A stretch of 64,000 bases of DNA from a virus (IMGVR_UViG_3300028653_000011), one strand, 5' to 3'. Shown: positions 4,050 through 59,095, numbered from the stretch's first letter. The notes: generated by a model not told the origin, from the sequence alone. A program made the numbers and translations.

Positions 4050-5264
4050 GTGTACGTTGGTTTGGTGCATCGCTTTTGCCTAGACGCCGCGCTCCTCGGC
4101 ACCGACAAGCACCTGCTCGTCGACGGTGAGAGCGCATCGTGGTCACCCGTCGTTCCACCGAAGGTGTTCCACTGCACCGGCCACGTGAAGTCCACCAGCG
4201 AGCAGTGCCTCGACACCGTCGCCAAGTTGGCAGGCCTCGAGCTGCCCTTCGCGCCGCCGCCACGCTTCGTGCAGGCGATGTCAGCGTTGTCGGGCTCAAT
4301 CACCGGTGATGTGCCGTGGCAGCAGGTGATGCCCGCCGCCGCCCACCAAGACTTCATCAGGTGCCTCGTCAATGCGACCAGGGTTGTCATGCAATCGGCC
4401 CTCGTCGATTATTTTGAGGGCATTTGGGTGCCAGGTAGTGTTGTTGTGGCTTCGCTCGCTCGCGCATCCATCGACGTGACCAAGTGGCAGGAGTTAGTCG
4501 CCGTGGGATTGGGCAACGTGCCCGCGTTGAAGTCGTTTCAACCTGATGCTGACGGCTTCGCACGCGCAGTCATCTACGATCGGTTCGCGACGCTGACGGG
4601 ACGCCTGACGGTGACAGCGGGCCCACAGATCTTGACGTTGAAGCGGGAACACCGGTGCATCCTCAGGTCGCGCCATGGCGATGCCGGGACGATCGTCGCC
4701 CTCGACTTTGCGGCCCTCGAGGCCCGAGTGTTGCTGTACGAGTTCGGCCGCAGCTGCGATGAACCTGACCTGTACGGGGCGCTGGCACGCGAATTGGGCC
4801 ACGATCGCAAGGCGATCAAGGGTGCTGTCATCTGTGAGCTGTACGGCAGCAGCAAGTACGCATTGGGCAAGCACTTGGGCATCGAAGGCAAGGAGCTCAA
4901 TCACTTCGTCAAGCGCGTCAAGGCCTACTTTAGGACCAGCGAGCTGCTGGCGCGGATCAAGGCACAGTTCGTGGCGACGGGCTTCATCACCAATCGCTAC
5001 GGCCGACCCATCAAGGTCGATGAACCTCTCGATCACGTGCTGGTCAATCACTATGCACAGTCCACCGGCGTTGACGTGACGATGTTGGGCTTTCACCAAG
5101 TCATCCAACGTTTGCCGCCGAGGACGAAGCCGATCTTCCTGCTTCACGACTCGATCCTGCTCGACGTGCACAATGATGACTTGGCCGAAGTGCAGAAGAT
5201 CGACAACGTGCGTGTCAAGGGCTATGTTCAGAAGTTTCCGTTGAGGATGGAGAAGATTGCATGA
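4050..5264 (+). CDS. Family A DNA polymerase, polymerase domain only (no recognisable exonuclease domains)
   Basis: Motif A LDFAALEARVL, motif B RKAIKGAVICELYG, motif C LLHDSIL. Only 404 aa; the start may be GTG 4065. Confidence 0.8.
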   Translation: MYVGLVHRFCLDAALLGTDKHLLVDGESASWSPVVPPKVFHCTGHVKSTSEQCLDTVAKLAGLELPFAPPPRFVQAMSALSGSITGDVPWQQVMPAAAHQDFIRCLVNATRVVMQSALVDYFEGIWVPGSVVVASLARASIDVTKWQELVAVGLGNVPALKSFQPDADGFARAVIYDRFATLTGRLTVTAGPQILTLKREHRCILRSRHGDAGTIVALDFAALEARVLLYEFGRSCDEPDLYGALARELGHDRKAIKGAVICELYGSSKYALGKHLGIEGKELNHFVKRVKAYFRTSELLARIKAQFVATGFITNRYGRPIKVDEPLDHVLVNHYAQSTGVDVTMLGFHQVIQRLPPRTKPIFLLHDSILLDVHNDDLAEVQKIDNVRVKGYVQKFPLRMEKIA

Positions 5265-5509
5265 TGACCCCGGGCACCGTCATCGAGTGGCGCTATGTGT
5301 CGAGCGCCAGGCGCGTACGCGGCGGCACAATGATGCTGGTCGACTTCGGTCCCGACGTGTTGATCGGTGGCTTTCACCTGCTGATCGGCTTCGTCGACGA
5401 CGTGATGACGTGGATGCCCTTGGGCCGTGCCAAGTTGTACCAAGTCAGGATCGCCACCCAACGCCTCGTCTATCCGTGTGAGGCAGTGATGCTGATGGGG
5501 CACACGTGA
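5261..5509 (+). CDS. Small 'MKPGDLIEW'-family protein (diverged paralog)
   Basis: TPGTVIEWRY...IGGFHLLI...MTWMPLG matches the family pattern. Confidence 0.6.
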   Translation: MMTPGTVIEWRYVSSARRVRGGTMMLVDFGPDVLIGGFHLLIGFVDDVMTWMPLGRAKLYQVRIATQRLVYPCEAVMLMGHT

Positions 5510-5769
5510 AACCGGGTGACCTGATCGAGTGGGTGTATGAACCCGAGAATGTACTTGTGCGCGCCAATGAACACATGTGGTCGTCGATGATGAAAGCCTG
5601 GGTCCACATCGGAGGTGTCCACTTGCTTATCTCTCGCGCCGAAGGCACCCTGACGTGGTTGCCCCTCGGTGCATTTGACAAGGGGTTGCTCCGCGCGCGC
5701 GCGGATGATACATGGCGACAGCGTTCGCAAACCACTAGGACCGCGGTTGCTCCACGTAGCGTCGAATGA
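5506..5769 (+). CDS. Small 'MKPGDLIEW'-family protein with an embedded CRISPR-like repeat unit
   Basis: MKPGDLIEW...WSS...IGGVHLLIS...GTLTWLPLG...KGLLRAR...VAPR. Confidence 0.7.
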   Translation: MKPGDLIEWVYEPENVLVRANEHMWSSMMKAWVHIGGVHLLISRAEGTLTWLPLGAFDKGLLRARADDTWRQRSQTTRTAVAPRSVE

Positions 5770-5772
5770 TGG
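5684..5772. CRISPR. Repeat-spacer-degenerate repeat unit (type I-E-like)
   Basis: GGTTGCTCCGCGCGCGCGCGGATGATAC (5684-5711) is 25/28 identical to the 53.8 kb repeat and has a 6-bp stem with 4-nt loop. A 33-nt spacer follows, then GGTTGCTCCACG...TGAT at 5745 (period 61). Confidence 0.6.
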
Positions 5773-5775
5773 CGC

Positions 5776-5804
5776 CTGAACACTGTGCCCGGTGATGATA
5801 AGAT
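5776..5804 (+). promoter_or_regulatory. Sigma70-like promoter CTGAAC-N17-TAAGAT (leaderless)
   Basis: 17-nt spacer; ATG 5811 lies 6 nt after the -10 element. Confidence 0.7.
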
Positions 5805-5810
5805 CAACCC

Positions 5811-6431
5811 ATGTCGTTGACACCTGAGCAGATTGAGCAGAACTGGCTACGCTTTCGGACGTTGTGTGGCAAGTTGGGTGAGCGCTCACCCGCGGTGATG
5901 CGGATGGTCGATGAGCTCGATGAGCGGCTGTGCCTGTGCCCGGCGTCGTCGAAGAGGGATTTCCACCACGCATTCCCAGGAGGTTTAATTTCGCACTCAT
6001 TACGCGTATTGAACAATTTGGTCATTCTCAATAATTCATATGGATGGAATTTGCCTAAGGACAGCATGATTATCGCCGCATTGTTTCACGACATCGGAAA
6101 ATGTGGGCTACCAGGCACTGATGCGGTGAATGACTTTTATACACCTCAAACAGACGGCTGGCGTGTTGAAAAAATGGGTGAGGAGTACAAGTACAACAAC
6201 GATCTAGCCTATATGACGACGCCTGATCGAAGTATGTTTATGATGCAACACTACGGTATTCAACTCTCTATTGATGAATATTTGTCAATCAAATTAAATG
6301 ATGGCTTTATCGTGCCTGAAAACAAGTCATATGGATTGAAGATTTCTCCACTGGTCTATGGGACGATGACAGCAGATTATGTCAGTACAATGGAAGAAAA
6401 ACACGTAGCATATTGGCCGTCTGAACAATGA
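5811..6431 (+). CDS. HD-domain phosphohydrolase (YhaM/Cbf1-like)
   Basis: HHAFPGGLISHSLRV ... AALFHDIGK. Confidence 0.8.
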   Translation: MSLTPEQIEQNWLRFRTLCGKLGERSPAVMRMVDELDERLCLCPASSKRDFHHAFPGGLISHSLRVLNNLVILNNSYGWNLPKDSMIIAALFHDIGKCGLPGTDAVNDFYTPQTDGWRVEKMGEEYKYNNDLAYMTTPDRSMFMMQHYGIQLSIDEYLSIKLNDGFIVPENKSYGLKISPLVYGTMTADYVSTMEEKHVAYWPSEQ

Positions 6432-7336
6432 CAAAGTCACTTCAATATGAAGTGTACTGTTACAGTTGTCATTGCGCACGATGCACGTGGCGCGATATCT
6501 ACGTCGGTAAGGCTAAATATGGCACCAATGATCGGCACCATACGCACGTAGTCGTTGCTCGTCGAATATTGTCAGGGCGCGGCACTAAAAAAGACCTGAA
6601 GTTTGATTACTTCATGGCAAAGCACGGGATTGATAATCTTCATGTAAGAACTTTGATCACGTGTTCATCTGAAGACGAAATGAATGACCAAGAGATTAAG
6701 ATGATTGTTGAAAAAAAGACGTTCCACGAGTTTGGTGGAATGAATTTTGATCGTGGTGGTCGTGGCGGGCGTAGAAAGGGAGTTTATACACCTACGCCTG
6801 AGACGCGTGTTAACGCTAGCATTGCACAAAAGAAAGCTCATGAAGCTGATCCCACATTGCGATACAGAGCAACGCGTGGTTTAATAGAAGGTGGAAAAGT
6901 GTGGCGTGAAGCAAATCCTGATGCGATGAAAGGTGTTGTTGAACGTGGGTGGGAAACAATTCATAAGCAACTTGAAACTGATCCTGAGTATGCTGAACAA
7001 TTCACAGCCATGCACATGGAGAAGTCGCGCAAGGGTGGCGATGCGTTCTTGGTTAAACACGCCAATCCAGAATTTGCAGATGATTTTGCAAAAAAGTGTG
7101 GTGATGGCGTAAGTGCTTGGTGTAAGGCAAACCCAGAAAGTGTCAAGCTACGTGCACAACGCGCCGCGGGAACTAAAGCTGCTAATGGTACTGGGATTAA
7201 AGCTGCTCGCGCCACAGCGCAAAAAACGCCTAAATCAGAGTACACACGTCGTGGACTAAAAGGGTGGGAGTTACGACGTCAAAGGCAATTTCGCCAAAAA
7301 TCTCACTCATGGCTTACGAGAGAAAAGGCAGAGTGA
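6428..7336 (+). CDS. GIY-YIG-like homing endonuclease
   Basis: YEVYCY...IYVGKA, R, conserved E (QEIKMI), MNFDRGG; AT-richer than its flanks. Confidence 0.7.
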   Translation: MTKSLQYEVYCYSCHCARCTWRDIYVGKAKYGTNDRHHTHVVVARRILSGRGTKKDLKFDYFMAKHGIDNLHVRTLITCSSEDEMNDQEIKMIVEKKTFHEFGGMNFDRGGRGGRRKGVYTPTPETRVNASIAQKKAHEADPTLRYRATRGLIEGGKVWREANPDAMKGVVERGWETIHKQLETDPEYAEQFTAMHMEKSRKGGDAFLVKHANPEFADDFAKKCGDGVSAWCKANPESVKLRAQRAAGTKAANGTGIKAARATAQKTPKSEYTRRGLKGWELRRQRQFRQKSHSWLTREKAE

Positions 7337-7638
7337 TGACTTCACTCATTGTTCCCGGCGATGTTGTTTCCCTCAAAGGCACAAGCGGGGGTATGTCGCG
7401 TCAACACCTGTATTCGACACCGGGTATCGATGCTATCGCCGACGTAAGTGATGATGGGGTGTTGTTCGTTGTGTCTACCCTTGAGGTCAAGGACGCATAC
7501 AAGAGGAGCGGCATACTTCGCAGCGAGTTCTTCTTCTACGTTCTCATCATGTCGGGTCACATTAGTGGCCATATGGCCGGGTGGATCACTGCTGGTCGAG
7601 TGGTGAAGTTGTGGAGTGCACATGAAGCAGTTGCCTGA
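7336..7638 (+). CDS. Hypothetical protein (SH3/KOW-like start PGDVV)
   Basis: ATG overlaps the upstream stop codon. Confidence 0.5.
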   Translation: MTSLIVPGDVVSLKGTSGGMSRQHLYSTPGIDAIADVSDDGVLFVVSTLEVKDAYKRSGILRSEFFFYVLIMSGHISGHMAGWITAGRVVKLWSAHEAVA

Positions 7639-7798
7639 TGACAAGACCTATGCGTGTCCCAAGTGCGCGGGACCTACCACTAAGTTGAAGGGCTTTGCAT
7701 GCTACTGGTGCCGACCCTGTGACCACGTCATTGATCTGTGGTATACCGATGATCTCGTGGTCATTGATGCGTCAAAGTCACCCGTCAAGCCTATTTAG
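7616..7798 (+). CDS. Small zinc-ribbon protein
   Basis: CPKC...CRPC. Confidence 0.45.
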   Translation: MHMKQLPDDKTYACPKCAGPTTKLKGFACYWCRPCDHVIDLWYTDDLVVIDASKSPVKPI

Positions 7799-7801
7799 AA
7801 C

Positions 7802-8026
7802 ATGAGCAATTCACTGCTCGAAAAGTACATCAGGTTGATGGTTCAAGAGGCACATGATGCCCGGGTACCCAATCAATTGGTCGGTGACTCGGGTGATGAG
7901 GGCGAACAGGTTGAAGTGGATGAGGCATCGGTGGTTGGCGGCATAGCAGGCTACACTGCACCTCTCGGCATGGATCCAGACAAACTAGGACGTAGGAAGA
8001 ACGCATCCAAGCGGAAGCGCAAGTAA
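7802..8026 (+). CDS. Small acidic late protein with leader-like N-terminus
   Basis: TATTTA at 7792-7797; LLEKYIRLMVQE; VDEASVVGGIAGYTAPLG. Confidence 0.6.
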   Translation: MSNSLLEKYIRLMVQEAHDARVPNQLVGDSGDEGEQVEVDEASVVGGIAGYTAPLGMDPDKLGRRKNASKRKRK

Positions 8027-8051
8027 TTCAGCACAAAGCGGTAACAGGAAC

Positions 8052-8077
8052 GGTGGCGCAGAACAATCTGCGCCACC
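8052..8077. terminator. 10-bp stem hairpin
   Basis: GGTGGCGCAG-AACAAT-CTGCGCCACC after the gene end; no clear U-tract. Confidence 0.5.
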
Positions 8078-8079
8078 CC

Positions 8080-8108
8080 TTGAACAAGGCAACGGACGAA
8101 GGTATGAT
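8080..8108 (+). promoter_or_regulatory. Sigma70-like promoter TTGAAC-N17-TATGAT
   Basis: Direct motif match with a 17-nt spacer. Confidence 0.7.
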
Positions 8109-8176
8109 CCAATGGTAGGTGCACTGATGCACTCACATAGTGGTTCATTCTGAGGTAGTAGGAAAGAGGATAGAAA

Positions 8177-8401
8177 ATGGCACAGGAATTCAATCCCGGT
8201 GATCAAGTTAAACACTTGTCAGGTGGACCTGTAATGACGGTTGACTATTGCAACGGCACCGCAGCTACTTGTTCATGGTTCGATCATAAAAGTGGTAAGT
8301 TTGAAACAGCGACACTCAGGAAAATAGCTCTCAAACTTCATGTGGAAGAGCATCAACCTGTCGTCCTACAAGACGACGGATACAAGTGGCCGACGGACTA
8401 A
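8177..8401 (+). CDS. DUF2158/YodC-like small protein
   Basis: FNPGDQVKHLSGGPVMTV...CSWF; strong Shine-Dalgarno (SD) site. Confidence 0.7.
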   Translation: MAQEFNPGDQVKHLSGGPVMTVDYCNGTAATCSWFDHKSGKFETATLRKIALKLHVEEHQPVVLQDDGYKWPTD

Positions 8402-8404
8402 TCG

Positions 8405-9337
8405 GTGCTGATTACCAAGCTTTCCGCCACGCGTGCACTATGTGCGTGTGATGTTTGTGGCACAGAAATTGTTCGTTCATTCAACCGTATGGGTGAACTG
8501 CAATTCTGTACACGTGCATGCATGACTTCAGCGCGGAAAGCTGGTGGTGTTCTACAACGGAAGACCGAAGCTACAGCACTTACAAAGTACGGTGTCACGA
8601 ACGTAGCAAAATCAGTTCTCATCAAGGAACAGACGAAGCAAACGTGCATGGTGCGCTATGGTGTCTCAGCACCTGTGTTATCGCCTGAGATTGATGCCAA
8701 ACGTCGCAAGACGCTTGAAGAGCGGTATGGTGTTGATCAGACGTTCAAGTCTACTGATGTGCGTGCCAAGTCTCGTGATACCAAACTTGAACGGTATGGT
8801 GAGGAATGGCCTGCTAAATTAGACGCCACGAAGCAAAAAGTGATAGAGACGAACATGGAGCGTTACGGCGTTCCAAGTCCCTTTAGTCTCGGATCACCCT
8901 TTCGCAGCGCTGATGATTGTAGTAAAGGGGGACAGGTTAGCTATCGTGCTCAAGGACTTAAGGCGGGTGGCGAAGGGTTCTTATCGAAACCTGAACTTCA
9001 GTTACGTGATCTATTGGTTGAACAGTTCGGCGTTGAAGATGTTGATCAACAAGTTGTGGTGCAACACGGCGTTCGAAAACCTTGGTTGATCGACTTCTAT
9101 GTCAAGTCAATTGACACCTACGTGCAATCAGACGGCGTCTATTGGCATGGGCTTGATAGGGCATATAATGAACTGCATCCGGATGCACAGAAGACGTATG
9201 ATCACGATAGACAGCAAGATCAATGGTTCGTGAACAATGGACGACGTCTGATTAGGATTACTGACAAGCAAGTGAAAGAGTGGATGAAGACGGGATCCGC
9301 GTCAGATGCGCTGAAGCAGATTCTTCTTCAACGGTAA
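8405..9337 (+). CDS. Homing-endonuclease-like protein (Zn finger + TxxxRYGV repeats + PD-(D/E)xK/Vsr-like nuclease)
   Basis: CDVC/FC motifs, repeated KYGV/RYGV, C-terminal IDFYVKSIDTYVQSDGVYWHG; paralog of 52593-53618. Confidence 0.7.
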   Translation: MLITKLSATRALCACDVCGTEIVRSFNRMGELQFCTRACMTSARKAGGVLQRKTEATALTKYGVTNVAKSVLIKEQTKQTCMVRYGVSAPVLSPEIDAKRRKTLEERYGVDQTFKSTDVRAKSRDTKLERYGEEWPAKLDATKQKVIETNMERYGVPSPFSLGSPFRSADDCSKGGQVSYRAQGLKAGGEGFLSKPELQLRDLLVEQFGVEDVDQQVVVQHGVRKPWLIDFYVKSIDTYVQSDGVYWHGLDRAYNELHPDAQKTYDHDRQQDQWFVNNGRRLIRITDKQVKEWMKTGSASDALKQILLQR

Positions 9338-9357
9338 TAGGAAAGAGGAATAGGAAC

Positions 9358-10284
9358 ATGGTAGATCTCGAGGCGATTCGTCGCAAAGTCGCGCAGCTCA
9401 ACGGCGAGCGCAAGAATTCAAACGTCCAGCTGTGGAAGCCCGCCCCGGGCGAGTACAAGGTCAGGGGACTGCCGTGGAAGCCCGGCACCGCGACCGCTGA
9501 TTCCCCCTTCATTGAGCGCCAGTTCTACTACTTGGGCGATCAACCCCGGATCCTGGCCCCTCGCCAGTTCAACAAGCCCGATCCCATCAATTCGCTGATC
9601 ACCAAGCTGTTCCGCTCTGGCAACCCCGATGACCGCGAGAACGCCAAGAAGCTGATGCCCAAGATGGTCGCCTACATGCCCCTCATCGTCCGCGGTGAAG
9701 AGGACAAGGGCGTGCAGGTGTGGTCGCTCAACAAGCTCGTCTACAAGGACCTGCTGGCGCTGTTCACCAATACCGAACTGTCGGATGATGGCAGCCTCAT
9801 TGACTTTCTCGACCCGGTCGATGGCATTGATCTCAAGGTGACGATCACCAAGTCGCCCAAAAAGTTCAACGGGCGTGACGTGATGGACGTCAAGATCGGC
9901 GCCGTCCGCAAGCAGAGCAAGTTGTCGAACGACGACGCGCAGGCCAAGAAGTGGCTCGACAACCTCCCCAACGTCGACGACATGTTCCCGACCAAGACGA
10001 CGGCCGAGATTGAAGCGGCGCTCAACGCTTACCTGTCGGGTGATTCACCTGACGCTGACGGTTCAAGCCGTGGCACTAAACCTCAGGACGAACTCGACAA
10101 GTTGGCCGATGATGTCAAGGCCGAAGTCAAGGCGCCCGCGACCGAAGCAGCGAAGGCGCCAAAGGCAGCGCCCGCCGCGAAGAAGGCCCCTGCCAAGAAG
10201 GCCGAAGTTGATGACGACGCTCCCGCTGAAAAAGTGTCGCTCGATGATGCCTTTGCATCGTTGATCAACGACAACGACGAGTAA
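9358..10284 (+). CDS. Single-stranded DNA-binding protein (gp32-like)
   Basis: LWKP..GEYKVRGLP, LIVRGEEDKGVQVW, DPVDGIDLKV; acidic C-terminal tail; adjacent to recA. Confidence 0.7.
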   Translation: MVDLEAIRRKVAQLNGERKNSNVQLWKPAPGEYKVRGLPWKPGTATADSPFIERQFYYLGDQPRILAPRQFNKPDPINSLITKLFRSGNPDDRENAKKLMPKMVAYMPLIVRGEEDKGVQVWSLNKLVYKDLLALFTNTELSDDGSLIDFLDPVDGIDLKVTITKSPKKFNGRDVMDVKIGAVRKQSKLSNDDAQAKKWLDNLPNVDDMFPTKTTAEIEAALNAYLSGDSPDADGSSRGTKPQDELDKLADDVKAEVKAPATEAAKAPKAAPAAKKAPAKKAEVDDDAPAEKVSLDDAFASLINDNDE

Positions 10285-10315
10285 CAACAGATCGGCGAGG
10301 GTCCTTCCTCGCCTT

Positions 10316-10386
10316 GCGAGCCAGGTGTAAAGGTGCACAGTCGGCTACCCGCCGGCAGGGCTAGGTTCAATGCCTAGGGTTTCGCT
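10316..10386 (+). tRNA. tRNA-Gly-like element, anticodon ACC (non-canonical or pseudo)
   Basis: Cloverleaf with acceptor GCGAGCC/GGTTTCGC (one bulge), D-arm GTGT/GCAC, anticodon stem GTCGG/CCGGC with loop CTACCCG, T-arm CTAGG-TTCAATG-CCTAG, discriminator T and no encoded CCA. Confidence 0.6.
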
Positions 10387-10405
10387 CGAAGAAAGGCAGT
10401 GCCAT

Positions 10406-11602
10406 ATGGCGAAAAAAGTCGAGGCTCAAGATCCCAAAGCTAGCAGTGCTGACGTCGACGACTTCACGTCGCAATTGATCAAAGACATCAATAAGGAAAT
10501 GGGTCTTCGTGTGGCCTATAACCTCAATGAGGCTACGGCACCGACGATCGTCAAAAGGTGGATCCCGACTGGCTCACTTCAACTCGATTATGCGATCAGG
10601 AATTGTGCTGGCGGTGGTTATCCTGAAGGTCGCATCATTGAGATTGCAGGGACGCCGTCTGTCGGAAAGTCGCACTTGGCCTACCACGTCGCCGCCAACG
10701 TGCAGGCGATGGGCGGATTGGTCGTCTACATTGACACCGAGAACGCAACCCCCGTTGACAAGCTGAAACACATGGGGATTGACGTTCGTAAGCGTTTCGT
10801 GTATTGTGATGAGCATGCAACGGAGAACGTCTTCAAGATCATTGAATCGATCATCCTTAAGGCAAAGACGTTGCCCGCGACCAAGGACATCCCGATTGTC
10901 GTGATTTGGGATTCGATTGCTGCCACATCGCCGCTAGCCGAATTGAACGGTGAGTATGAGGACAATACCATAGGGTTGCAAGCACGCGTCATCAGTAAGG
11001 GGATGAGGAAGATCACTGGCGTCATAGGGCAAAACAATGTGACGTTGTTGTGCTTGAATCAGCTACGTGATGCCATAGGCGTGATCCATGGTGATCCTCA
11101 GGTGACACCCGGGGGAAAAGCAGTGCCATTTCATGCATCAGTTCGTATACGACTTAGCTCTGGCACGCAAGTCAAGGACAGCAAAGGCAACACGATCGGC
11201 ATCCACGTCATTGCCACAATCAAGAAGAACAAGGTTGCACCACCTTTTAGGAAGCATGAGTTCGACATCATCTTTGGTGTTGGGATCGTTGAACACGAGT
11301 ACATCTTTGATGAAGTCAGAGCATACTGTGCTGACAACAAGGTGTTTGCAGCGTCAGGTGACAAGCAAGTAGAGATCAAGATCTCTGGAGCGAGTTCATG
11401 GAAGGAACTTATTGTCAGCGATGCTAAGACTGGTGAGGTCATCCTCGAGAAGAAGTTCTATAAGAGTGACTTCGGTGACCTAATGAAGGACTCGCAGTAT
11501 AAACCATTCATTGATAAGGTGATCGAGGCAACTTACATGACTGTTTCTGGTGAGAAAGCCGAAGAAGGTGAGACGCCTGTTGACGATGAAGAGGCGGCCT
11601 GA
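10406..11602 (+). CDS. recA: RecA recombinase
   Basis: IPTGSLQLD, GRIIEIAGTPSVGKS, IDTEN, VIWDSIAA, GLQARVIS, NQLR, PGGKA, KNKVAPPF. Confidence 0.95.
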   Translation: MAKKVEAQDPKASSADVDDFTSQLIKDINKEMGLRVAYNLNEATAPTIVKRWIPTGSLQLDYAIRNCAGGGYPEGRIIEIAGTPSVGKSHLAYHVAANVQAMGGLVVYIDTENATPVDKLKHMGIDVRKRFVYCDEHATENVFKIIESIILKAKTLPATKDIPIVVIWDSIAATSPLAELNGEYEDNTIGLQARVISKGMRKITGVIGQNNVTLLCLNQLRDAIGVIHGDPQVTPGGKAVPFHASVRIRLSSGTQVKDSKGNTIGIHVIATIKKNKVAPPFRKHEFDIIFGVGIVEHEYIFDEVRAYCADNKVFAASGDKQVEIKISGASSWKELIVSDAKTGEVILEKKFYKSDFGDLMKDSQYKPFIDKVIEATYMTVSGEKAEEGETPVDDEEAA

Positions 11603-13039: not shown

Positions 13040-13064
13040 ACTGTGTGCCCGTGAGGGGTACAGT
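13036..13064 (+). promoter_or_regulatory. Promoter CTGAAC-N17-TACAGT (leaderless)
   Basis: ATG 13072 lies 7 nt after the -10 element. Confidence 0.7.
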
Positions 13065-13071
13065 GATAGAC

Positions 13072-24150: not shown

Positions 24151-24151
24151 C

Positions 24152-27187: not shown

Positions 27188-27481
27188 ATGAAACCCGGTG
27201 ACCTCATCGAGTGGTTTTACAAGTTGAACGGCGACGTCGTTCATCCTCGTGAAACGTTGTGGTCGTCGATTGAGCAGCGCTACGTGCCCATCGGGGGCAC
27301 CCACCTGTTGGTCAGCATCGTCAACGGTGAGCTGACCTTCCTCACTTTGGGGGCACAATGTAAGGGGTTGCTCCGCGCGCACGAGGATGATCTAGTGAGC
27401 GCGTCGGACTTCGAGGCATCGTGGCGGATTGCTCCACGCGTGAGTGAGTGTAAAGTGTTGGTGCCTCGTGGTAGGATGTAG
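27188..27481 (+). CDS. 'MKPGDLIEW'-family protein with embedded repeat unit
   Basis: Family motifs; KGLLRAHEDD ... IAPRV. Confidence 0.7.
   Translation: MKPGDLIEWFYKLNGDVVHPRETLWSSIEQRYVPIGGTHLLVSIVNGELTFLTLGAQCKGLLRAHEDDLVSASDFEASWRIAPRVSECKVLVPRGRM
27366..27440. CRISPR. Repeat-spacer-partial repeat unit (type I-E-like)
   Basis: GGTTGCTCCGCGCGCACGAGGATGATCT (23/28 to the 53.8 kb repeat), a 33-nt spacer, then GATTGCTCCACGCG at 27427 (period 61). Confidence 0.5.
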
Positions 27482-27485
27482 CTAG

Positions 27486-27743
27486 ATGTGTCCCTATCGC
27501 TATGCGCTGCAGCCGTCGTCGGTGCCCCGTCCTCGACGTACCCTATTGGGTCGTTACAGGACGTTCTGCCGGCGCGTCGAAGTCTTCTTCGGTCGCCTGC
27601 ACTTGGGCCGCCTGAAGCGAGACACCTGCTTTGCGTGCGGCAAGCGAGAACCGGGACCTGCGAATCGTACGTCACGGCACCGAGATTTTCCTGACCTGTA
27701 CGACTGTGGTTGCATTGAGAGGAGTTGCTCACATGATCGCTGA
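27486..27743 (+). CDS. Hypothetical protein with CxxC motifs
   Basis: TAGGAT -10 element at 27472-27477 upstream; CFAC, CGC. Confidence 0.4.
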   Translation: MCPYRYALQPSSVPRPRRTLLGRYRTFCRRVEVFFGRLHLGRLKRDTCFACGKREPGPANRTSRHRDFPDLYDCGCIERSCSHDR

Positions 27744-45821: not shown

Positions 45822-45848
45822 TGCGGGTGAATAATTAGGGTCAATTCC

Positions 45849-48673: not shown

Positions 48674-48681
48674 GGTGATCC

Positions 48682-49354: not shown

Positions 49355-49363
49355 AATCAGCAC

Positions 49364-50139: not shown

Positions 50140-50146
50140 GTGTTGA

Positions 50147-51238: not shown

Positions 51239-51255
51239 CGTAAATAGGGGTGTAG

Positions 51256-52599: not shown

Positions 52600-53618
52600 T
52601 TGAAGTTCTCGAAACATGGATCAAGACGCCTCGATACAAGAATCGTGGTAAACGACGATTGTTAGCGATTGTTGCGTGTGATGCGTGCGGCAAACGTGAA
52701 CAGCTACCATACATCAACGGAATGTGGGAGACTCGAAAACGCGTCTGTTCACCTGAGTGTGATACAAAACTACGATCTCGTGGTGGTGCGCTTTATGCAA
52801 GTATCACGGCGACGAACGTAGAGCGATATGGCGCAAAGTACGCATCAGCGACTGATTTAGGAAAGCACAAACAGGAAGAGACAAATCTTAGAAAGTATGG
52901 ATATAAGGCATCCTCACAATCACCTGAAGTTGAAGCTAAACGACTTAACACGTGTCTTTCTATGTATGGCGGACCTGCAGCAACAAGTGACGCGAACGTC
53001 AGAGCGAAAGTCAAGTTGACGTGTGATACCAAGTTTGGTGGTGGTGTGTTGCTCGATGATGATATTCGAGAGCAATTCAACGCAACTATGGTAGAACGAC
53101 ATGGTGCACCGTGGGCAGCACAATCAGCAATCATTCTCGCTAAACAACATCAGACCAACATTGAACGTTATGGAGTTGCGTTTCCATTCCACACAGATGA
53201 AGCGAAGTCAAGAGCACACTCACCCCAAGCGCTACTCAAACGCCATGAGACCATGAAGCGTAATGGCACATACAGGACTTCAAAGCCTGAAGACCGTCTC
53301 TATCAAGTTCTGTGTGAGATGTTTGATATAGACGACGTCGACCGCCAGACGCTCGTATACAAGTGGCCAATTGACTTCTACGCCAAGAGCATTGACACCT
53401 ACGTACAGTACGACAGTTATTGGCATGGCGTCGGACGCGCAATCATTGAGGTCGCTGAACACAAGGTGCCTCGAGACGTCTCGATTCACAAGAAGATGCT
53501 GACTGACATCGCTCAGGATGCGTACTTCGCCGAACGTGGCATGCGGCTCATTCGTGTGCAGAGCCTGACGCCTGAACAGATTACCCCCGCGGCCATGCGT
53601 CGCATGGGCCTGCTGTGA
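52593..53618 (+). CDS. Homing-endonuclease-like protein (paralog of 8405-9337)
   Basis: CDAC, RYG/KYG repeats, IDFYAKSIDTYVQYDSYWHG. Confidence 0.7.
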   Translation: MLIEVLETWIKTPRYKNRGKRRLLAIVACDACGKREQLPYINGMWETRKRVCSPECDTKLRSRGGALYASITATNVERYGAKYASATDLGKHKQEETNLRKYGYKASSQSPEVEAKRLNTCLSMYGGPAATSDANVRAKVKLTCDTKFGGGVLLDDDIREQFNATMVERHGAPWAAQSAIILAKQHQTNIERYGVAFPFHTDEAKSRAHSPQALLKRHETMKRNGTYRTSKPEDRLYQVLCEMFDIDDVDRQTLVYKWPIDFYAKSIDTYVQYDSYWHGVGRAIIEVAEHKVPRDVSIHKKMLTDIAQDAYFAERGMRLIRVQSLTPEQITPAAMRRMGLL

Positions 53619-53619
53619 C

Positions 53620-53946
53620 ATGAAACCCGGTGACCTCATCGAGTGGGCGTACAAGTCGGACGGCAAAGTCGTTCACCCCCATGAAGAATTGTGGTCATCG
53701 ATCGAGAAACGCTACGTGCCCATCGGCGGCCTACACCTGTTCGTCAGCAATGTTGACGGCACCCTGACATGGCTGCCTCTGGGTGAGAATTGTAAGGGGT
53801 TGCTCCACGCGCGCGAGGCTGATACGATGGCCAGGTCGGGCCGGTCGTTCGCGACGAGCGGTTGCTCCACGCGCGCGAGGCTGATACCGACCTGTACGGC
53901 GAGTGGTGCGACGACGAAGTCGGTTGCTCCACGCGCGCGAGGCTGA
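53620..53946 (+). CDS. 'MKPGDLIEW'-family protein reading through a CRISPR mini-array
   Basis: Family motifs; the stop codon lies inside the third repeat. Confidence 0.65.
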   Translation: MKPGDLIEWAYKSDGKVVHPHEELWSSIEKRYVPIGGLHLFVSNVDGTLTWLPLGENCKGLLHAREADTMARSGRSFATSGCSTRARLIPTCTASGATTKSVAPRARG

Positions 53947-53949
53947 TAC
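53798..53949. CRISPR. CRISPR mini-array, 3 identical 28-nt repeats and 2 spacers of 34 nt (type I-E-like)
   Basis: GGTTGCTCCACGCGCGCGAGGCTGATAC at 53798, 53860 and 53922. Spacers are GATGGCCAGGTCGGGCCGGTCGTTCGCGACGAGC and CGACCTGTACGGCGAGTGGTGCGACGACGAAGTC. Confidence 0.85.
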
Positions 53950-53997
53950 GGTAGGCGTGCCGAGACGTCGCCGATTGTACCCACGCCTGTACCACAC

Positions 53998-54026
53998 CTG
54001 AACACTGATCTCTCATGTGGTACAGT
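53998..54026 (+). promoter_or_regulatory. Promoter CTGAAC-N17-TACAGT (leaderless)
   Basis: ATG 54034 lies 7 nt after the -10 element; shares CCTGAACACTG with the 5775 promoter. Confidence 0.7.
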
Positions 54027-54033
54027 CTAACCC

Positions 54034-54990
54034 ATGACCGAACGGGTATTGATCACGGGCGCGGCGGGTTTCATCGGCTCAAACCTGGTCACCCGGTGCC
54101 TGGCCGAAGGGTGGGTCGTCCGCGGCGTCGACGACATGAGCAGTGGCCACCGAGAACTGCTGCACCCCGCCTTTAATACTGGTAGCCTGTTGATCGGCGA
54201 CTTTGCCGCTGATTTCGTCCTCAACTCGATCAGGGCACAGGCCTTCGACGTCGTCATTCACCTGGCGGCGACGCCCCGCGTCAGCTATTCCGTCGAACAC
54301 CCGCTGGAAACGCACGACAACAACGTCACCAAGACGCTGAAGTTGCTCGACGCCTGCACGGGCAACGTCAAACGCTTCGTCTTCGCCAGCTCCAGTGCCG
54401 TCTATGGTGGCGCGCTGGAGCTGCCCACTCCCGAGACGGCACCCAAGGAACCCAAGTCGCCCTATGCACTCCAGAAGTCGATCATTGAGGACTACCTGAA
54501 GTTGTACAGCAACCTCTACGGCCTCGACAGCGCTTGCCTGCGGTTCTTCAACGTCTTCGGCCCGGGCCAGTTGGGTAGCAATCCCTATGCGACGGCGATC
54601 GCGGCGTGGCTGACAGCGATCAAGCGCGGCGAGCCCATGCGCAGCGACGGTGACGGCTTTCAAAGCCGCGACATGTGCTACGTCGACAACGTCACTGATG
54701 CCTGTGCCAAGGCGGTGCAGAGCAAGGTACCCCTGATGGGAGCGTGTTACAACGTGGCCTGCGGCGACAATGTCTCCAACAACGACATCTTGGCGGTGTT
54801 GCGGGCCCATTACCCAGAGGCGACCGTCGTCAATGCGCCGGCTCGACGGGGCGACGTGATGCACACCATGGCCGACGTGTCGAAGGCCCAGCAACAGTTG
54901 GGCTACGTGCCGCTGGTCAAGTTCTGGCCGGGCCTCATCAAGACGATGATGTGGTACGAGCGTGAGTGGGAACAGATCAGGAGCCTGTGA
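54034..54990 (+). CDS. NAD-dependent NDP-sugar epimerase (extended SDR, GalE/WbpP-like)
   Basis: TGAAGFIGSNL, HLAA, FASSSAVYG, YALQK, LRFFNVFGPGQ. Confidence 0.9.
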   Translation: MTERVLITGAAGFIGSNLVTRCLAEGWVVRGVDDMSSGHRELLHPAFNTGSLLIGDFAADFVLNSIRAQAFDVVIHLAATPRVSYSVEHPLETHDNNVTKTLKLLDACTGNVKRFVFASSSAVYGGALELPTPETAPKEPKSPYALQKSIIEDYLKLYSNLYGLDSACLRFFNVFGPGQLGSNPYATAIAAWLTAIKRGEPMRSDGDGFQSRDMCYVDNVTDACAKAVQSKVPLMGACYNVACGDNVSNNDILAVLRAHYPEATVVNAPARRGDVMHTMADVSKAQQQLGYVPLVKFWPGLIKTMMWYEREWEQIRSL

Positions 54991-55187
54991 TGAAGATCAC
55001 CTTGACGGCCGATGAAGTGCGCGAGGCCTGCGCGATGTACGTCCGCAGCAAGTACGAAAATTTGCGGGGTGCAACTCTGGCGGTGCAACTGCACCGTCGT
55101 CAACTGACGCCGCAGGAGGAATTCGACGCCTCGCACGGCTACGTCAACGACATGACGGACCGCGTTGAAGCCGTGGTGGACGCATGA
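54990..55187 (+). CDS. Hypothetical protein
   Basis: Coupled ATG. Confidence 0.45.
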   Translation: MKITLTADEVREACAMYVRSKYENLRGATLAVQLHRRQLTPQEEFDASHGYVNDMTDRVEAVVDA

Positions 55188-55417
55188 GCAATGTCAGGTC
55201 AGTCGCAGATTACCATGCAAATCACGCAATTGAAGCACTCAAAGTGCTCATTGAGTCAACGCCTGAAGGCGAGTTCGTAGATATCCCACAAACACGTCAA
55301 CAGCTCGAACAGATGCGTCAAAAATTGATCGGCATCGAACACATGAAGGATAGCGTCGCATACATCGATTATCAACTTGAACAGGGTGATTTGGGAAGGG
55401 TACGATTCGCAACATGA
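55184..55417 (+). CDS. Hypothetical protein
   Basis: Coupled ATG. Confidence 0.45.
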   Translation: MSNVRSVADYHANHAIEALKVLIESTPEGEFVDIPQTRQQLEQMRQKLIGIEHMKDSVAYIDYQLEQGDLGRVRFAT

Positions 55418-56169
55418 TTACTAACACCGTCTCTGACATGCGACTGGAGCTGGCACGTCACCTCGCTGACCAGCGCTTCACCAGCGTCAACCGTGAGGCG
55501 TCAATGACGTCGCTGGTCGGCGCCAAGACGATCGAACTGTGTGGTGTCAACTTCATCGCCGACCAAGAAGTGCTGTTCGGCAAGCTGAACCACGATTACC
55601 TCAAGCGTGAGGAACAGTGGTACCAGTCAATGTCGTGCAGCGTTGATGACTTTCCGGGTGGCGCCCCCGCGGTGTGGGAGGCAATCGCCTCGAGGGATGG
55701 ACTGGTCAACTCAAACTACGGCTACCTCATCCGTCACTCCGACAATGGTTATCAGTTCGACCACGTCGTTAACGAGTTACGAAGGAACCCGGAGTCCCGC
55801 CGAGCGGTGATGATCTACACCCGGCCGTCGATGTGGGTCGACTACAATAAGGGTGGGCGCTCTGACTTCGTCTGCACCAACACGGTGCAGTACCTGATCC
55901 GCGACGGTTCGGTGAGTGCTGTGGTGAATATGCGCTCACAAGATTCACACATCGGATATAAGAACGATCGCGAATGGCAGCGATTGACGCTCAACGCCGT
56001 CGCTGATGCGGTGGGAGTACCAGCGGGCGTGCTGATGTGGCAGGTGGGGTCGCTCCATGTCTACCAACGTGACTTCTACCTCGTCGATCACTTCATCAAG
56101 ACGCGTGAAGTCAACATCACCAAGGCGCAGTACCGTGAACTGTATCCCACGTCGCCGTATAATGAGTGA
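55414..56169 (+). CDS. dCMP hydroxymethylase-like (thymidylate synthase fold)
   Basis: NPESRRA, DFVCT, AVVNMRSQDSHIGYKNDREWQ, GSLHVY; Asp at the ThyA Asn177-equivalent position. Confidence 0.85.
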   Translation: MITNTVSDMRLELARHLADQRFTSVNREASMTSLVGAKTIELCGVNFIADQEVLFGKLNHDYLKREEQWYQSMSCSVDDFPGGAPAVWEAIASRDGLVNSNYGYLIRHSDNGYQFDHVVNELRRNPESRRAVMIYTRPSMWVDYNKGGRSDFVCTNTVQYLIRDGSVSAVVNMRSQDSHIGYKNDREWQRLTLNAVADAVGVPAGVLMWQVGSLHVYQRDFYLVDHFIKTREVNITKAQYRELYPTSPYNE

Positions 56170-56185
56170 AGGAGCAACACCGAAA

Positions 56186-56752
56186 ATGACATGCATCGTT
56201 GGCGTCGCGAAGGGCAACACGGTCTGGTTGGGCGGCGATAGTGCCGCGACGGGCGGGAACATGAATCGCACCATCATCAAGGATCCCAAGGTCTTCGTCC
56301 GCGGCGAGCTAGCCTTCGGCGTCTGCGGCCTACCTAAGGTGATGGACGCCGTGGCCCATGGCATCGAAATGCCCCAGCAACAAGGTGATACAAGCGATCG
56401 GACCTTTCTGGTCAATGAGCTGGTGCCGGCCCTCCGCGCGGGGCTCAAGCGCCTTGATTGTACCGCCAAAGACCCGCAATTCGGCACCGTCTTCATGGGA
56501 GGCATGTTGATCGGCTACCGAGGTGTCATCTATGAGTTGCAGGGCAATTTTCAACTGTGTACCTGCGCTGAAGGCTTTGCCTCGGTCGGCTCGGGCTCGC
56601 CCTTCGCCAAGGGCGCCCTCCATGCGTCGAATGGCAAGGGCAGTCCCCGCAAGCGGATCCTCAACGCCCTCGAGTGCGCGACAAAGGGCAATGCGGGCGT
56701 CGCCCCACCCTTTGTCATCGTCAGTGTCAAGCAGAAAAGGAAGTGGCTGTAA
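56186..56752 (+). CDS. Proteasome-beta/HslV-like Ntn-hydrolase
   Basis: M-TCIVG, GDS, PKVF, SVGSG; SD AAGGAG upstream. Confidence 0.75.
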   Translation: MTCIVGVAKGNTVWLGGDSAATGGNMNRTIIKDPKVFVRGELAFGVCGLPKVMDAVAHGIEMPQQQGDTSDRTFLVNELVPALRAGLKRLDCTAKDPQFGTVFMGGMLIGYRGVIYELQGNFQLCTCAEGFASVGSGSPFAKGALHASNGKGSPRKRILNALECATKGNAGVAPPFVIVSVKQKRKWL

Positions 56753-56754
56753 GC

Positions 56755-57336
56755 ATGACCTGCGTCGTTGGGTTGGAAGATCACGGCATCATCTACGTCG
56801 GTGCGGACAGTGCGGGCATCGACTCTCACTCGTTGAGCATCGTCGGCCGCGCCGACGAGAAGGTCTTCGTCACCGATGACGGCGACTTCATCATGGGCTT
56901 TGCGGGCTCTTTCCGCATCGGTCAGCTGCTGCGCTATGCCCTCGTCACCCCTGATCAACCGGGCCGCATGGATGACATGGCCTACATGGTCACCGACTTC
57001 ATCGACGCCGTGCGCGCAATGCAGCACGACAAAGGCGCGCGAGAGAAGAAGGACGAACTTGAACAGCACGAGGCCTCGTTCATCGTCGGGTATCGAGGTC
57101 ACCTCTATGTCATCGAGAGCGACTACCAGGTGGGTCGACCCATCGACAACTATGCCGCGATCGGTTGTGGAGCTGACATGGCCTTGGGTGCCATGTACGC
57201 GACCAAGAAGCTGAAGATGAAGCCTGAAGAGCGATTGATGTTGGCGCTGCAGGCGGCCGCAGAGTTTAGCGCCGGCGTCAGGCCACCCTTTCACATCCTG
57301 AAGCTCGAACCTCCTGTTGTTGACGAGGCAAAGTAG
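56755..57336 (+). CDS. Proteasome-beta/HslV-like Ntn-hydrolase (tandem paralog)
   Basis: M-TCVVG, ADS, EKVF, GFAGSFR, AIGCG. Confidence 0.75.
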   Translation: MTCVVGLEDHGIIYVGADSAGIDSHSLSIVGRADEKVFVTDDGDFIMGFAGSFRIGQLLRYALVTPDQPGRMDDMAYMVTDFIDAVRAMQHDKGAREKKDELEQHEASFIVGYRGHLYVIESDYQVGRPIDNYAAIGCGADMALGAMYATKKLKMKPEERLMLALQAAAEFSAGVRPPFHILKLEPPVVDEAK

Positions 57337-57345
57337 GAGAACACC

Positions 57346-57660
57346 ATGGGCGCACACCTGATCAATGGTGAGTTTCAAAGCGACAAATATCCGACGTGTC
57401 CCCGGGGAAAGGTGCCATTGAGCGTCAAGGATCCGACGGCACAAGACCTGCTGTGGGAGTACGCGCAGCGTCGCCGCGCAGTTGATGCCGAGTTTGCTGA
57501 CGATCTGGAGACGGCGCTGCGCGCGTGTGGTTATGAGCCCAGGGGCATCACTAGGATTTCAAAGTCCGATGCCGAATACTTGCGAGGCGAGCCTTCACCA
57601 CTGAAAATTCTGATCCCAAATTCTATTGAAGAAGACGACCCGCCTGAAAGTGAGGAGTGA
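57346..57660 (+). CDS. Hypothetical protein
   Basis: SD AGGAG upstream. Confidence 0.55.
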   Translation: MGAHLINGEFQSDKYPTCPRGKVPLSVKDPTAQDLLWEYAQRRRAVDAEFADDLETALRACGYEPRGITRISKSDAEYLRGEPSPLKILIPNSIEEDDPPESEE

Positions 57661-57965
57661 ACATGACATCGAGAGACTTCTGCTACTGGCTCCAGGGCTT
57701 CTTGGAGCTCCGCGATGCAGGTTACTCGGGTACGAACATCTCGCTGACCCACGAACAGCTCGACTGCATCAAGCGTCACCTGGCGATGGTGTTCAAGCAC
57801 GAGATTGACCCGAGCATGGGTGATGAGGCTCACCGTGACGAGCTGCAGGACATCCACGACGACGATGCGACTGCCAAGCAACCCATTAGACCCAAACGCG
57901 TGAACGTCTCCGTCCTCGACCAGCGCGGTCCCACGTTCGATCCCAACGTCAGGTTGATGTGCTGA
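57657..57965 (+). CDS. Hypothetical phage protein
   Basis: MTSRDFCYWLQGFLEL. Confidence 0.6.
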   Translation: MNMTSRDFCYWLQGFLELRDAGYSGTNISLTHEQLDCIKRHLAMVFKHEIDPSMGDEAHRDELQDIHDDDATAKQPIRPKRVNVSVLDQRGPTFDPNVRLMC

Positions 57966-57966
57966 G

Positions 57967-58551
57967 ATGGCCGACACCAACGCCTCTCTGATCGTCTTCT
58001 GTGGGCCCATGATGTCGGGCAAGACGTCGAAGCTGTTGATGGCCCTCGAGCGCCTCAAGTACCAGCACAAGCGCGTTGCCGTCTTCAAGCCCTCGCTCGA
58101 CGTCAGGTACAGCGCCAGCGAAATCGTCAGCCACTTGGGTTGGCGGCACCCGGCGACGACGGTGCAAGGCGGCGCCGACATCCTCGAGGCACTGGCTGAG
58201 GCCGACGTGGCACCTGATGCGATTGCCGTCGACGAGGCCTTCATGATCCCGGGTGTCGCAGGGGTGTTGACGTGGTTGTACCGCACCGGCGTCGACGTCG
58301 TCGTCTCCACGCTCGACATTTCGGCGACGGGCAAGCCCTTTCCCGAGGTCGAGAAGTTGTTGCCGTGGGCCACGCACATCGAGAAGTGCTCGGCCGTCTG
58401 CACCCAGTGTGGCCGTGACGCCTTCTACACCCACAAGAAGCAGGTGTCGACCGACGATGAGATTGAAGTCGGTGGTGCCGAGATGTACGAGCCGCGTTGT
58501 AGCCGCCATCACGTCGCGATCGATCTGCGGCCCAAGCTCAATGAGCCATGA
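57967..58551 (+). CDS. tdk: Thymidine kinase
   Basis: CGPMMSGKT, VDEA, CTQCG, YEPRC. Confidence 0.9.
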   Translation: MADTNASLIVFCGPMMSGKTSKLLMALERLKYQHKRVAVFKPSLDVRYSASEIVSHLGWRHPATTVQGGADILEALAEADVAPDAIAVDEAFMIPGVAGVLTWLYRTGVDVVVSTLDISATGKPFPEVEKLLPWATHIEKCSAVCTQCGRDAFYTHKKQVSTDDEIEVGGAEMYEPRCSRHHVAIDLRPKLNEP

Positions 58552-58808
58552 AACCCGGCGATCTCATCGCGCGGGTGTACGAATCTGACGGCGTTACAGC
58601 ACTTCGTAGAGAAGAATTGTTATCATCGGTGACGGGCGATTACGTGCCCATTGGGGGCATTCACCTGTTGATCAGCTATGTCGATGGAATATTGACATGG
58701 TTGCCTTTGGGTGCAAACTGCAACGAGTTGTTTAGTGCGGACGAGAACGACACCGAAGCCGGCATTGCAGGCGACGACGTCATCTACGTACACGTGAGCC
58801 TGACATGA
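58548..58808 (+). CDS. 'MKPGDLIEW'-family protein (diverged)
   Basis: MKPGDLI...YVPIGGIHLLIS..DGILTWLPLG. Confidence 0.65.
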   Translation: MKPGDLIARVYESDGVTALRREELLSSVTGDYVPIGGIHLLISYVDGILTWLPLGANCNELFSADENDTEAGIAGDDVIYVHVSLT

Positions 58809-59095
58809 AGCCAGGCGACCTCATCGAGTGGGCGTATAGGGTTGATAATTGTGTCGTTGTTCACAGTGAATATTTGTGGTCATCGGTGTTCAATCGTTTT
58901 GTGCCCATTGGGGGCATCCACCTGCTGATCGGACGCGCCGATGGGATATTGACGTGGCTGTCTCTACGTGCAGCTCACAAGGGCTTGTTGCGAGCCGCCG
59001 AGCGCGATGTGCTGTGCCTAAGGGCGGAACGTCCTGCCGGCAAGGGTTGTTACGCACGTGTCTTCGGGCGCGGTGCGGTGAGGCCGACGGTGTAA
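58805..59095 (+). CDS. 'MKPGDLIEW'-family protein
   Basis: Family motifs; KGLLRAA; repeat-like GGTTGTTACGCACGTG at 59045. Confidence 0.65.
   Translation: MKPGDLIEWAYRVDNCVVVHSEYLWSSVFNRFVPIGGIHLLIGRADGILTWLSLRAAHKGLLRAAERDVLCLRAERPAGKGCYARVFGRGAVRPTV

Follow-up and report, generated by a model that had tools for sequence, protein, structure and literature searches.

What is the origin and purpose of the short nucleotide repeat in which members of a small multicopy gene family end, and which recurs about 61 nucleotides (nt) further on in another reading frame? The question is raised by a 64,000-nt stretch of viral DNA (hereafter the window) that corresponds to bases 27,746-91,745 of a 215,857-bp virus record in IMG/VR (IMGVR_UViG_3300028653_000011; 63% complete by CheckV). 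The phage is uncultivated and comes from rhizosphere metagenomes. Proteins identical to its own are encoded on contigs of 359-361 kb, and it is therefore a jumbo phage (~360 kb); DNA and protein searches of a cultured phage collection returned no relative. The first-pass annotation of the window had proposed that a family of 'MKPGDLIEW' genes forms cassettes made of an open reading frame (ORF) and a miniature CRISPR array, in which the ORF serves as leader or chassis. Our analysis sustains this proposal, as the units have type I-E geometry, contain what is very probably captured host DNA and begin in the 3′ ends of the family ORFs. With a probability of roughly 0.6, we consider them to be type I-E-style CRISPR mini-arrays of a jumbo phage, the leader-proximal repeat of which is the end of the conserved part of an SH3-like gene, and which would supply guides for host Cascade.

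The six paralogous small ORFs are located in the window exactly where they had been annotated (starting at 5261, 5506, 27188, 53620, 58548 and 58805; Table 1), and the complete 216-kb record contains 14-15 family copies. The conserved part of the gene ends in a repeat unit of 28-29 nt, GGTTGCTCCACGCGCGCGAGGATGATAC(G), with a palindromic core (TCCaCG-CGCG-CGaGGA). Allowing at most one mismatch, GGTTGCTCCRCG occurs at 8 sites in the window compared to 0.87 expected by chance (no shuffle gave 8), and 7 of the 8 sites fall within three of the family loci. A 12-nt motif recurring after 61-62 nt had been reported for four loci; the recurrence is clear in three of them (5506, 27188 and 53620), while the copies at 58805 are decayed and the repeat actually extends over 28-29 nt. 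Two copies 61 nt apart were found at each of the first two loci (5684/5745 and 27366/27427), the distal copy being degenerate in its 3′ half, and three perfect copies with a 62-nt period at the third (53798, 53860 and 53922). No repeat was recognisable at 58548 and 5261. The sequences between the repeats in the window are mutually unrelated, as had been noticed, with a length of 32-34 nt rather than 33-34 nt.

Several observations bear on the source of these intervening sequences, or spacers. Their GC content exceeds that of the phage background (60.1% vs 47.8%, P = 7e-10; 65% vs 57.5%, P = 0.017). Alignment of the contigs of four rhizosphere runs to the window revealed foreign contigs sharing exactly positions 53826-53861 and 53888-53921, with unrelated flanks; these foreign-flank contigs carrying the 53620 spacers come from three runs. 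Contigs of the aligned runs also break at the repeats. The flank of spacer 1 led to two Joint Genome Institute (JGI) contigs of 69% GC (L169 among them), in which the spacer lies inside the thiamine-phosphate synthase gene thiE beside holB. One GTDB species genome, a 6.4-Mb Myxococcota metagenome-assembled genome (MAG) referred to as G227 in the rest of the text, encodes a HolB that is 100% identical. Of the six spacers of this phage, five have a match in G227, each on a different contig (E values of 1e-11 to 4.5e-6); for two spacers of a second phage lineage described below, matches were obtained in G227 (30/32) and in another genome from its family (29/32). All G227 matches end at the repeat borders, and no G227 match was found for ~4.8 kb of control phage DNA that included three array-bearing stretches of the second lineage and the tails of the 58548 and 58805 genes. 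The targets are ordinary genes on either strand, coding for ThiE, an FkbM methyltransferase and a Ser/Thr kinase with a receiver domain. Comparison of the spacers with their own phage genome and with related phage loci revealed no protospacers; a partial match (18/19) between a lineage-2 spacer and a lineage-1 locus was not convincing. Exact scans of a viral collection with spacers and their flanks returned nothing or only the same phage, and ~600 spacers from ten bacterial type I-E arrays had no match to the phage. The matching Myxococcota species and the phage were found together in the same rhizosphere samples, and a G227-like Myxococcota species is probably the phage host, judging from these sequence matches. 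From these matches it is evident that host chromosomal sequence was recently captured as spacers into the DNA of the phage.

The borders of the captured segments are also informative. In 5 of 5 cases, the upstream repeat has at position 29 (A, A, G, C, G) the same base that adjoins the protospacer. In E. coli type I-E systems, the spacer brings along the last base of the repeat, which stems from the AAG protospacer-adjacent motif (PAM). Since base 29 is shared with the protospacer flank as in E. coli, the true unit is a 28-nt repeat followed by a 33-34-nt spacer. GAA(G) is found 0-2 nt upstream of four of the seven protospacers, and is missing from the other three. It is highly likely that host DNA was captured into the gene-embedded phage repeat by a reaction of the Cas1-Cas2 type.

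The dimensions of the units are those of type I-E arrays. In the E. coli K-12 array, 29-nt repeats recur with a 61/62-nt period, Cas7e (type I-E) is encoded in 33 of 201 genomes of the order to which G227 belongs, and nine arrays adjoining cas7e in this order have 29-nt repeats and periods of 60-63 nt. Aligned in register, the phage repeat is identical to genuine type I-E repeats at 15-19 of 29 positions, at the low end of the 15-28 (median 20) seen for pairs of genuine repeats (shuffle P of repeat identity from 2e-4 to 7.5e-4 over three phage repeat variants). A tetraloop and a 3′ handle occupy the type I-E position or lie one base off, the handle being AUGAUACG vs AUGAGCCG or AUAAACCG. Constant-length repeats separated by unique spacers of near-constant length, as in CRISPR arrays generally, are accompanied by the specific type I-E layout of a 29-nt repeat and a 32-nt spacer with the last repeat base derived from the protospacer (period of 61/62 nt; base 29 identical to the flank in all five cases). 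Like CRISPR-I of E. coli K-12 and the cas7e-side arrays of Myxococcota, the phage arrays combine a 28-29-nt repeat and a 61-62-nt period with a degenerate distal repeat; like type I-E arrays, they place a tetraloop on a GC stem at repeat positions 12-16, carry the 3′ handle AUxAxxCG (AUGAxACG in the phage) and take the last repeat base from the protospacer flank, and an AAG motif adjoins some protospacers. They differ from type I-E arrays in a shorter stem that pairs more weakly and in this phage contains an A-A mismatch, in the lack of an AT-rich non-coding leader and of adjacent cas genes, and in holding 1-3 spacers instead of tens.

The association of gene and repeat extends to other phages. 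A second lineage (IMG/VR 3300014838_000014, 3300037099_*, 3300044712_001255 and others; 48% GC) carries the same gene at 42-49% identity with a variant repeat, GGTTGTTCCACGCGCGCGTGGATGACACG; its ORF-array units are often in tandem, in which case the next copy takes its start codon and ribosome-binding site from the degenerate last repeat of the unit before it. All loci together yielded 48 unique arrays or solo repeats, of which 18 have one repeat, 22 two, 7 three and 1 four, with a period of 61 nt in 26 of the arrays and of 60-68 nt in the others. Counted by interval, the period is 61 nt in 26-36 and 62-64 nt in the remaining ones. The arrays contain 36 unique spacers of 32-36 nt (one of 40 nt) without mutual similarity. 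An intact family ORF precedes 42 of the 48, the remainder consisting of three hits with low scores and of ORF copies, two or three in number, that carry frameshifts; every high-scoring array in this phage and its relatives starts within the 3′ end of a family ORF, and none is free-standing. The possibility, raised in advance as an objection, that homologues generally lack the 61-62-nt repeat is thus contradicted by the homologues themselves, which carry it. Among the frameshifted copies, those at L136:1052 and L142:2593 retain an intact, high-scoring repeat, which suggests either that the repeat can outlive the gene or that the frameshifts are assembly errors.

Could the repeat simply reflect constraint on the protein, as the first-pass annotation also considered? 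Repeat 1 encodes the end of the conserved domain (K-GLLxAREDD-T). A second copy at an offset of 61 nt is one base out of frame and encodes VAPRARG followed by a TGA inside the repeat, and one at 62 nt encodes GCSTRARLI, in line with the earlier remark that the copies are read in different frames. Codons in repeat 1 are fixed at frequencies of at least 0.91, compared to 0.4-0.6 at equally conserved residues of the ORF body, which use 2-5 codons freely. Because synonymous codons are fixed only in the repeat, and because the same nucleotides are read in three frames, protein constraint fails to explain the repeat. At the decayed 58805 locus, the first copy has retained K-G-L-L-R-A through synonymous changes only.

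The protein nevertheless leaves its mark on the first spacer. In-frame stop codons are absent from first spacers (0/29 vs 14/58 in the other two frames; P of none ~3.5e-4), and the ORF stops at the TGA inside repeat 2 in 18 of 29 cases. First intervals measure 61 nt in 21/29 and 64 nt in 4/29, two lengths that both keep the +1 frame; 64-nt intervals do not occur in ten genuine arrays (0/605). Selection appears to keep the frame open through the first spacer and the second repeat. The suggestion that spacer capture changes the C-terminus is supported to this extent, namely that the first spacer is translated in a frame kept open by selection. Translational bypassing or frameshifting between repeat copies was dropped as an explanation, there being no evidence for it and the spacers being host DNA. 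Mimicry of host proteins by the two perfect spacers was rejected, as the phage reads thiE in an antisense frame and the methyltransferase gene in a frame other than its own.

Searches of Pfam and PHROGs revealed no family match for the six proteins, nor did a sequence profile search of the PDB with the family; a further profile search gathered 239 clusters at 50% identity, all uncharacterised. AlphaFold2 predicts a barrel resembling SH3, Tudor and KOW domains (predicted local distance difference test score of 90.9), in agreement with the SH3- or KOW-like fold that had been put forward as a guess; the nearest structures are SH3, Tudor and KOW domains, and these matches are generic and low-scoring (Z up to 4.9; Foldseek E of 0.2 or worse). 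Both repeat-encoded segments are placed in strands of the model. Accordingly, inserting 61 nt at repeat 1 would leave the protein with an unchanged end, preceded by a fresh linker of ~11 residues.

A mechanism can be proposed on this basis. The Cas1-Cas2 integrase, supplied by the host, would insert spacers at repeat 1, and each 61-nt insertion would rebuild the end of the protein, in the order barrel, GL(L/F)xAR-DD, ~11 spacer-encoded residues and V(V/A)PRxxG-stop from the duplicated repeat. The transcript of the family gene would double as the precursor of CRISPR RNA (crRNA), from which host Cas6e and Cascade would load guides; in the function that we favour, Cascade-Cas3 would thereby be aimed at the host's own chromosome. 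5-hydroxymethylcytosine may spare phage DNA from attack by Cas proteins. A segment of the window (55780-55945) is 68-70% similar to dCMP hydroxymethylase or thymidylate-synthase-fold genes of T4-like phages, and the phage appears able to make 5-hydroxymethylcytosine on account of this dCMP-hydroxymethylase-like gene.

Several results weigh against arrays that work in this way. Neither Cas1, Cas6e nor Cas7e was found in the 216-kb phage record, which is incomplete, or in G227, which is a fragmented MAG, and no Cas1 was found in four related phage records, likewise incomplete, one of them 86% complete. No bacterial array with the phage repeat was found among 185,579 species genomes, which gave single matches only, and a search of 401 genomes of the host's order with up to 3 mismatches returned 4 single repeat matches and no array. 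The canonical AAG PAM is present at only one of seven protospacers (53620 spacer 1). The phage hairpin has a predicted energy of -4.9 to -11.4 kcal/mol vs about -15 kcal/mol for host type I-E hairpins; 86% of the hairpin cells pair, no better than in shuffles, and the pairs do not covary more than shuffled ones. Rfam at permissive thresholds gave only chance matches for the repeat, and an nhmmer search with the phage repeat profile did not match the E. coli array. Cleavage by Cas6e at repeat 1 would cut the gene's own mRNA upstream of the stop codon. In distant relatives of low GC content, the peptide motifs persist (GLF..., followed by phi-phi-PR close to the C-terminus) with only vestigial repeats 67-70 nt apart. 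The sequencing runs listed for the phage include no RNA run. Finally, no spacer turnover was seen, arrays being identical between phage genomes that are 99.8-100% identical. As no cas genes, no matching bacterial array and no spacer turnover were found, the host origin of the integrase and any role as crRNA are putative.

Much of this list would also be expected of a neutral by-product ('neo-CRISPR'), that is, a gene 3′ end resembling a type I-E repeat into which host Cas1-Cas2 occasionally integrates host prespacers, the tolerated insertions persisting without any crRNA function. Scattered, ordinary chromosomal targets on either strand are what random sampling would yield, the selection that is visible acts on the protein (open frame, 61/64-nt intervals), and the missing host repeat and cas genes, the weak hairpin without covariation and the unchanged spacers of near-identical genomes all agree with it. 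Cas1-Cas2 of E. coli has reportedly been seen to integrate ectopically at sites that resemble repeats. However, the synonymous sites of repeat 1 are fixed across paralogues that are only ~50% identical, which calls for a nucleotide-level reason, the module has been kept across the 239 protein clusters and several phage lineages, and a phage would be expected to shed an integration hotspot that disrupts its own genes; we therefore hold a pure by-product to be unlikely, though a serious contender. The same conservation at the nucleotide level could serve a counter-defence decoy, whose repeat hairpins would act as RNA anti-CRISPRs (Racrs) soaking up host Cas6e or Cas7e, or whose leader-repeat copies, on replicating phage DNA, would act as a sponge drawing Cas1-Cas2 integration away from the host array, with spacers being incidental. 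At least 14 dispersed copies per genome, a large share of solos (18/48) and phage records in which no cas genes were found suit such a role, repeat mimics inhibiting type I-E and I-F systems are known (PMC10651486), and a sponge in a cell whose chromosome is being degraded would gather host-derived spacers. Yet Racrs are solitary, intergenic near-copies of host repeats, whereas the phage repeat is coding, often arrayed and has no close host counterpart that we could find; a decoy or sponge is improbable, though likewise a serious contender.

Explanations outside CRISPR biology fare worse. A terminator, an RNA-processing or recombination signal (of the kind that T4-type phages have in their promoter-stem-loop elements) or a motif that exists purely at the protein level would fit a hairpin at gene ends ahead of the -10-like element of the next gene, the AlphaFold2 strands formed by both repeat-encoded segments, and distant relatives that hold peptide motifs with little nucleotide repeat. 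None of these accounts for host inserts of precise size bounded by repeats, for the 61-nt ruler or for a spacer-borne base 29; moreover, T-tract terminators are absent and the same nucleotides are read in three frames, so that this class is essentially excluded. A bolder proposal, which we advance tentatively and regard as rather doubtful, is a domesticated form of CRISPR adaptation in which the 3′ end of a multicopy gene is the leader-repeat site for the host integrase; each event would add a guide against the host chromosome and rewrite an 11-residue loop while regenerating the C-terminal strand, or else the copies would be a sponge that stops the host from acquiring immunity. If true, this would be a gene whose coding sequence is edited by Cas1-Cas2. 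The reading that we prefer remains that of type I-E-style mini-arrays providing guides for host Cascade.

Table 1. Family genes, repeats and spacers of the phage, with window coordinates and matches to the Myxococcota genome G227 (C, contig).
Feature	Coordinates	Strand	Match to G227	Remarks
Diverged 'PGD-IEW' paralogue	5261/5264..5509	+		No recognisable repeat; 30% identity to the 27188 copy; genome search E 0.003
Family ORF, 5506 locus	5506..5769	+		GTG start, 87 residues; final 29 codons formed by repeat 1, spacer and repeat 2
5506 locus, repeat 1	5684..5712	+		GGTTGCTCCGCGCGCGCGCGGATGATAC+A; perfect 16-nt palindrome; in-frame GLLRARADDT
5506 locus, spacer	5713..5744	+	C64:5600-5634, 33/35	Protospacer flank cagAAGa
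5506 locus, terminal repeat	5745..5773	+		3′ half degenerate; +1 frame VAPRSVE-stop
Family ORF, 27188 locus	27188..27481	+		97 residues; AlphaFold2 SH3-like barrel, repeat-encoded segments as strands
27188 locus, repeat 1	27366..27394	+		GGTTGCTCCGCGCGCACGAGGATGATCTA
27188 locus, spacer	27395..27426	+	C35:52952-52984, 31/33	Protospacer flank tcgAAGaa
27188 locus, terminal repeat	27427..27455	+		Degenerate, GATTGCTCCACGCGTGAGTGAGTGTAAAG
Family ORF, 53620 locus	53620..53946	+		108 residues; runs through repeat 1, spacer 1, repeat 2 (+2 frame) and spacer 2 to a TGA within repeat 3
53620 locus, repeat 1	53798..53826	+		GGTTGCTCCACGCGCGCGAGGCTGATACG
53620 locus, spacer 1	53827..53859	+	C7:159538-159573, 36/36 with neighbouring bases	Part of thiE, antisense strand, of a 69% GC bacterium; flank AAG; 34/34 to metagenome contigs L168 and L169
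53620 locus, repeat 2	53860..53888	+		Final base C not G, equal to the base flanking protospacer 2
53620 locus, spacer 2	53889..53921	+	C42:1146-1179, 34/34 with one flanking base	FkbM-type methyltransferase gene, sense strand
53620 locus, repeat 3	53922..53950	+		Intact; +1 frame VAPRARG-stop
Family ORF, 58548 locus	58548..58808	+		Decayed repeat (CNELFSADENDT replacing CKGLLxAREDDT); no array
Family ORF, 58805 locus	58805..59095	+		Decayed repeat 1 (58983-) and decayed repeat 2 ~62 nt on (59045-)
Array outside the window, spacer 1			C13, 30/33	
Array outside the window, spacer 2			No match	

The sequences that follow the arrays were inspected for the sigma70-like promoters attributed to each of the four loci. 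A strict sigma70 consensus scan called none of them; in a direct reading of the sequence, a -10-like hexamer was found 6-8 nt ahead of the next start codon at all four loci, two of which also share CCTGAACACTG at the -35 position. At window positions 5770-5812, 53990-54036, 27449-27488 and 59090-59127, the hexamers are TAAGAT, TACAGT, TAGGAT and TATGAT, without a Shine-Dalgarno sequence, and the post-array starts look like a family of leaderless promoters. The associated idea that the cassette has spread to operon ends is retained only tentatively. Outside the window, at genome position 119341, an unrelated ORF with the product terminus …APRACEDDT has a half-repeat (…GCGAGGATGATACT) after it, which may be a relic of another unit.

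Further observations concern the relatives. A Logan contig from a different low-GC phage (L146:1-1234) carries a distant family member in five tandem copies coupled by ATGA; in every copy, a vestigial second GTTATTYC lies 67-70 nt past the initial one, and there is a phi-phi-P-[RKQ] motif close to the C-terminus. Near-identical contigs differ by few single-nucleotide polymorphisms, which cluster in family ORFs and arrays (position 3208 of L132/L133/L134; 2531-2559 and 3197-3203 of L142/L143); they include one codon of a translated spacer with three alleles (Leu, Val, Met) and a 29-nt patch with nine changes that looks like gene conversion between paralogues. The diverged first repeat of a lineage-2 paralogue (L135:4073-4101, CTGCTCCTCGCGCGCGTTGATGACGCTTC) matches at ~29/30 a single site in another Myxococcota genome (G655:C55:3011-3040), where there is no array. 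This match could be due to chance in GC-rich DNA or to a repeat partly overwritten by host sequence.

The units described here would represent a new anatomy of CRISPR array, one that starts inside, and is translated with, a protein-coding gene, in at least 14 units per genome, and is conserved throughout a large family of jumbo phages that are uncultivated. From the perfect spacer matches, a Myxococcota species is predicted as host of a ~360-kb rhizosphere phage. Three testable ideas emerge, namely that phages turn the host type I-E system on the host chromosome, that repeat-bearing genes serve as decoys, and that Cas1-Cas2 can productively edit coding sequences.

Contrary to the initial impression that no such system was known, arrays lacking cas genes and targeting the host have already been published for huge phages, which carry compact arrays that lack cas or adaptation genes and whose spacers are directed at chromosomes of the host (Al-Shayeb et al. 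2020, PMC7162821). Like the phage studied here, these are jumbo phages with compact arrays in which no Cas1 or Cas2 was found, their spacers match bacteria from the same sample that are taken as hosts, and use of host Cas proteins was proposed. Unlike in those phages, the arrays reported here are many dispersed units of 1-3 spacers, each fused to a paralogue of one small gene, their repeat 1, spacer 1 and repeat 2 are translated, and no similar host repeat was found. Solitary repeat units of phages have been described as Racrs (Camara-Wilpert et al. 2023, PMC10651486), which, like our units, are phage-borne repeat mimics without cas genes, including mimics of type I-E, and many of the copies reported here are solitary. 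Racrs are intergenic, non-coding and close to host repeats, whereas most of our units have real spacers and no array with a repeat that they would closely mimic was found in the 185,579 species genomes or, with up to 3 mismatches, in the 401 genomes of the host's order. That survey masked ORFs, so that units like these would be missed, a blind spot which hides gene-embedded viral repeat units. Viruses of Sulfolobales have also been reported to carry mini-arrays, with one or two spacers each, whose use relies on Cas proteins of the host (Medvedeva et al. 2019, PMC6858448); their spacers target competing viruses, in contrast to spacers that match a bacterial chromosome in arrays placed inside a gene. 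What is new here is the obligate fusion to a multicopy gene, the translation of repeat, spacer and repeat, the dispersal as many units of 1-3 spacers and the breadth of the family.

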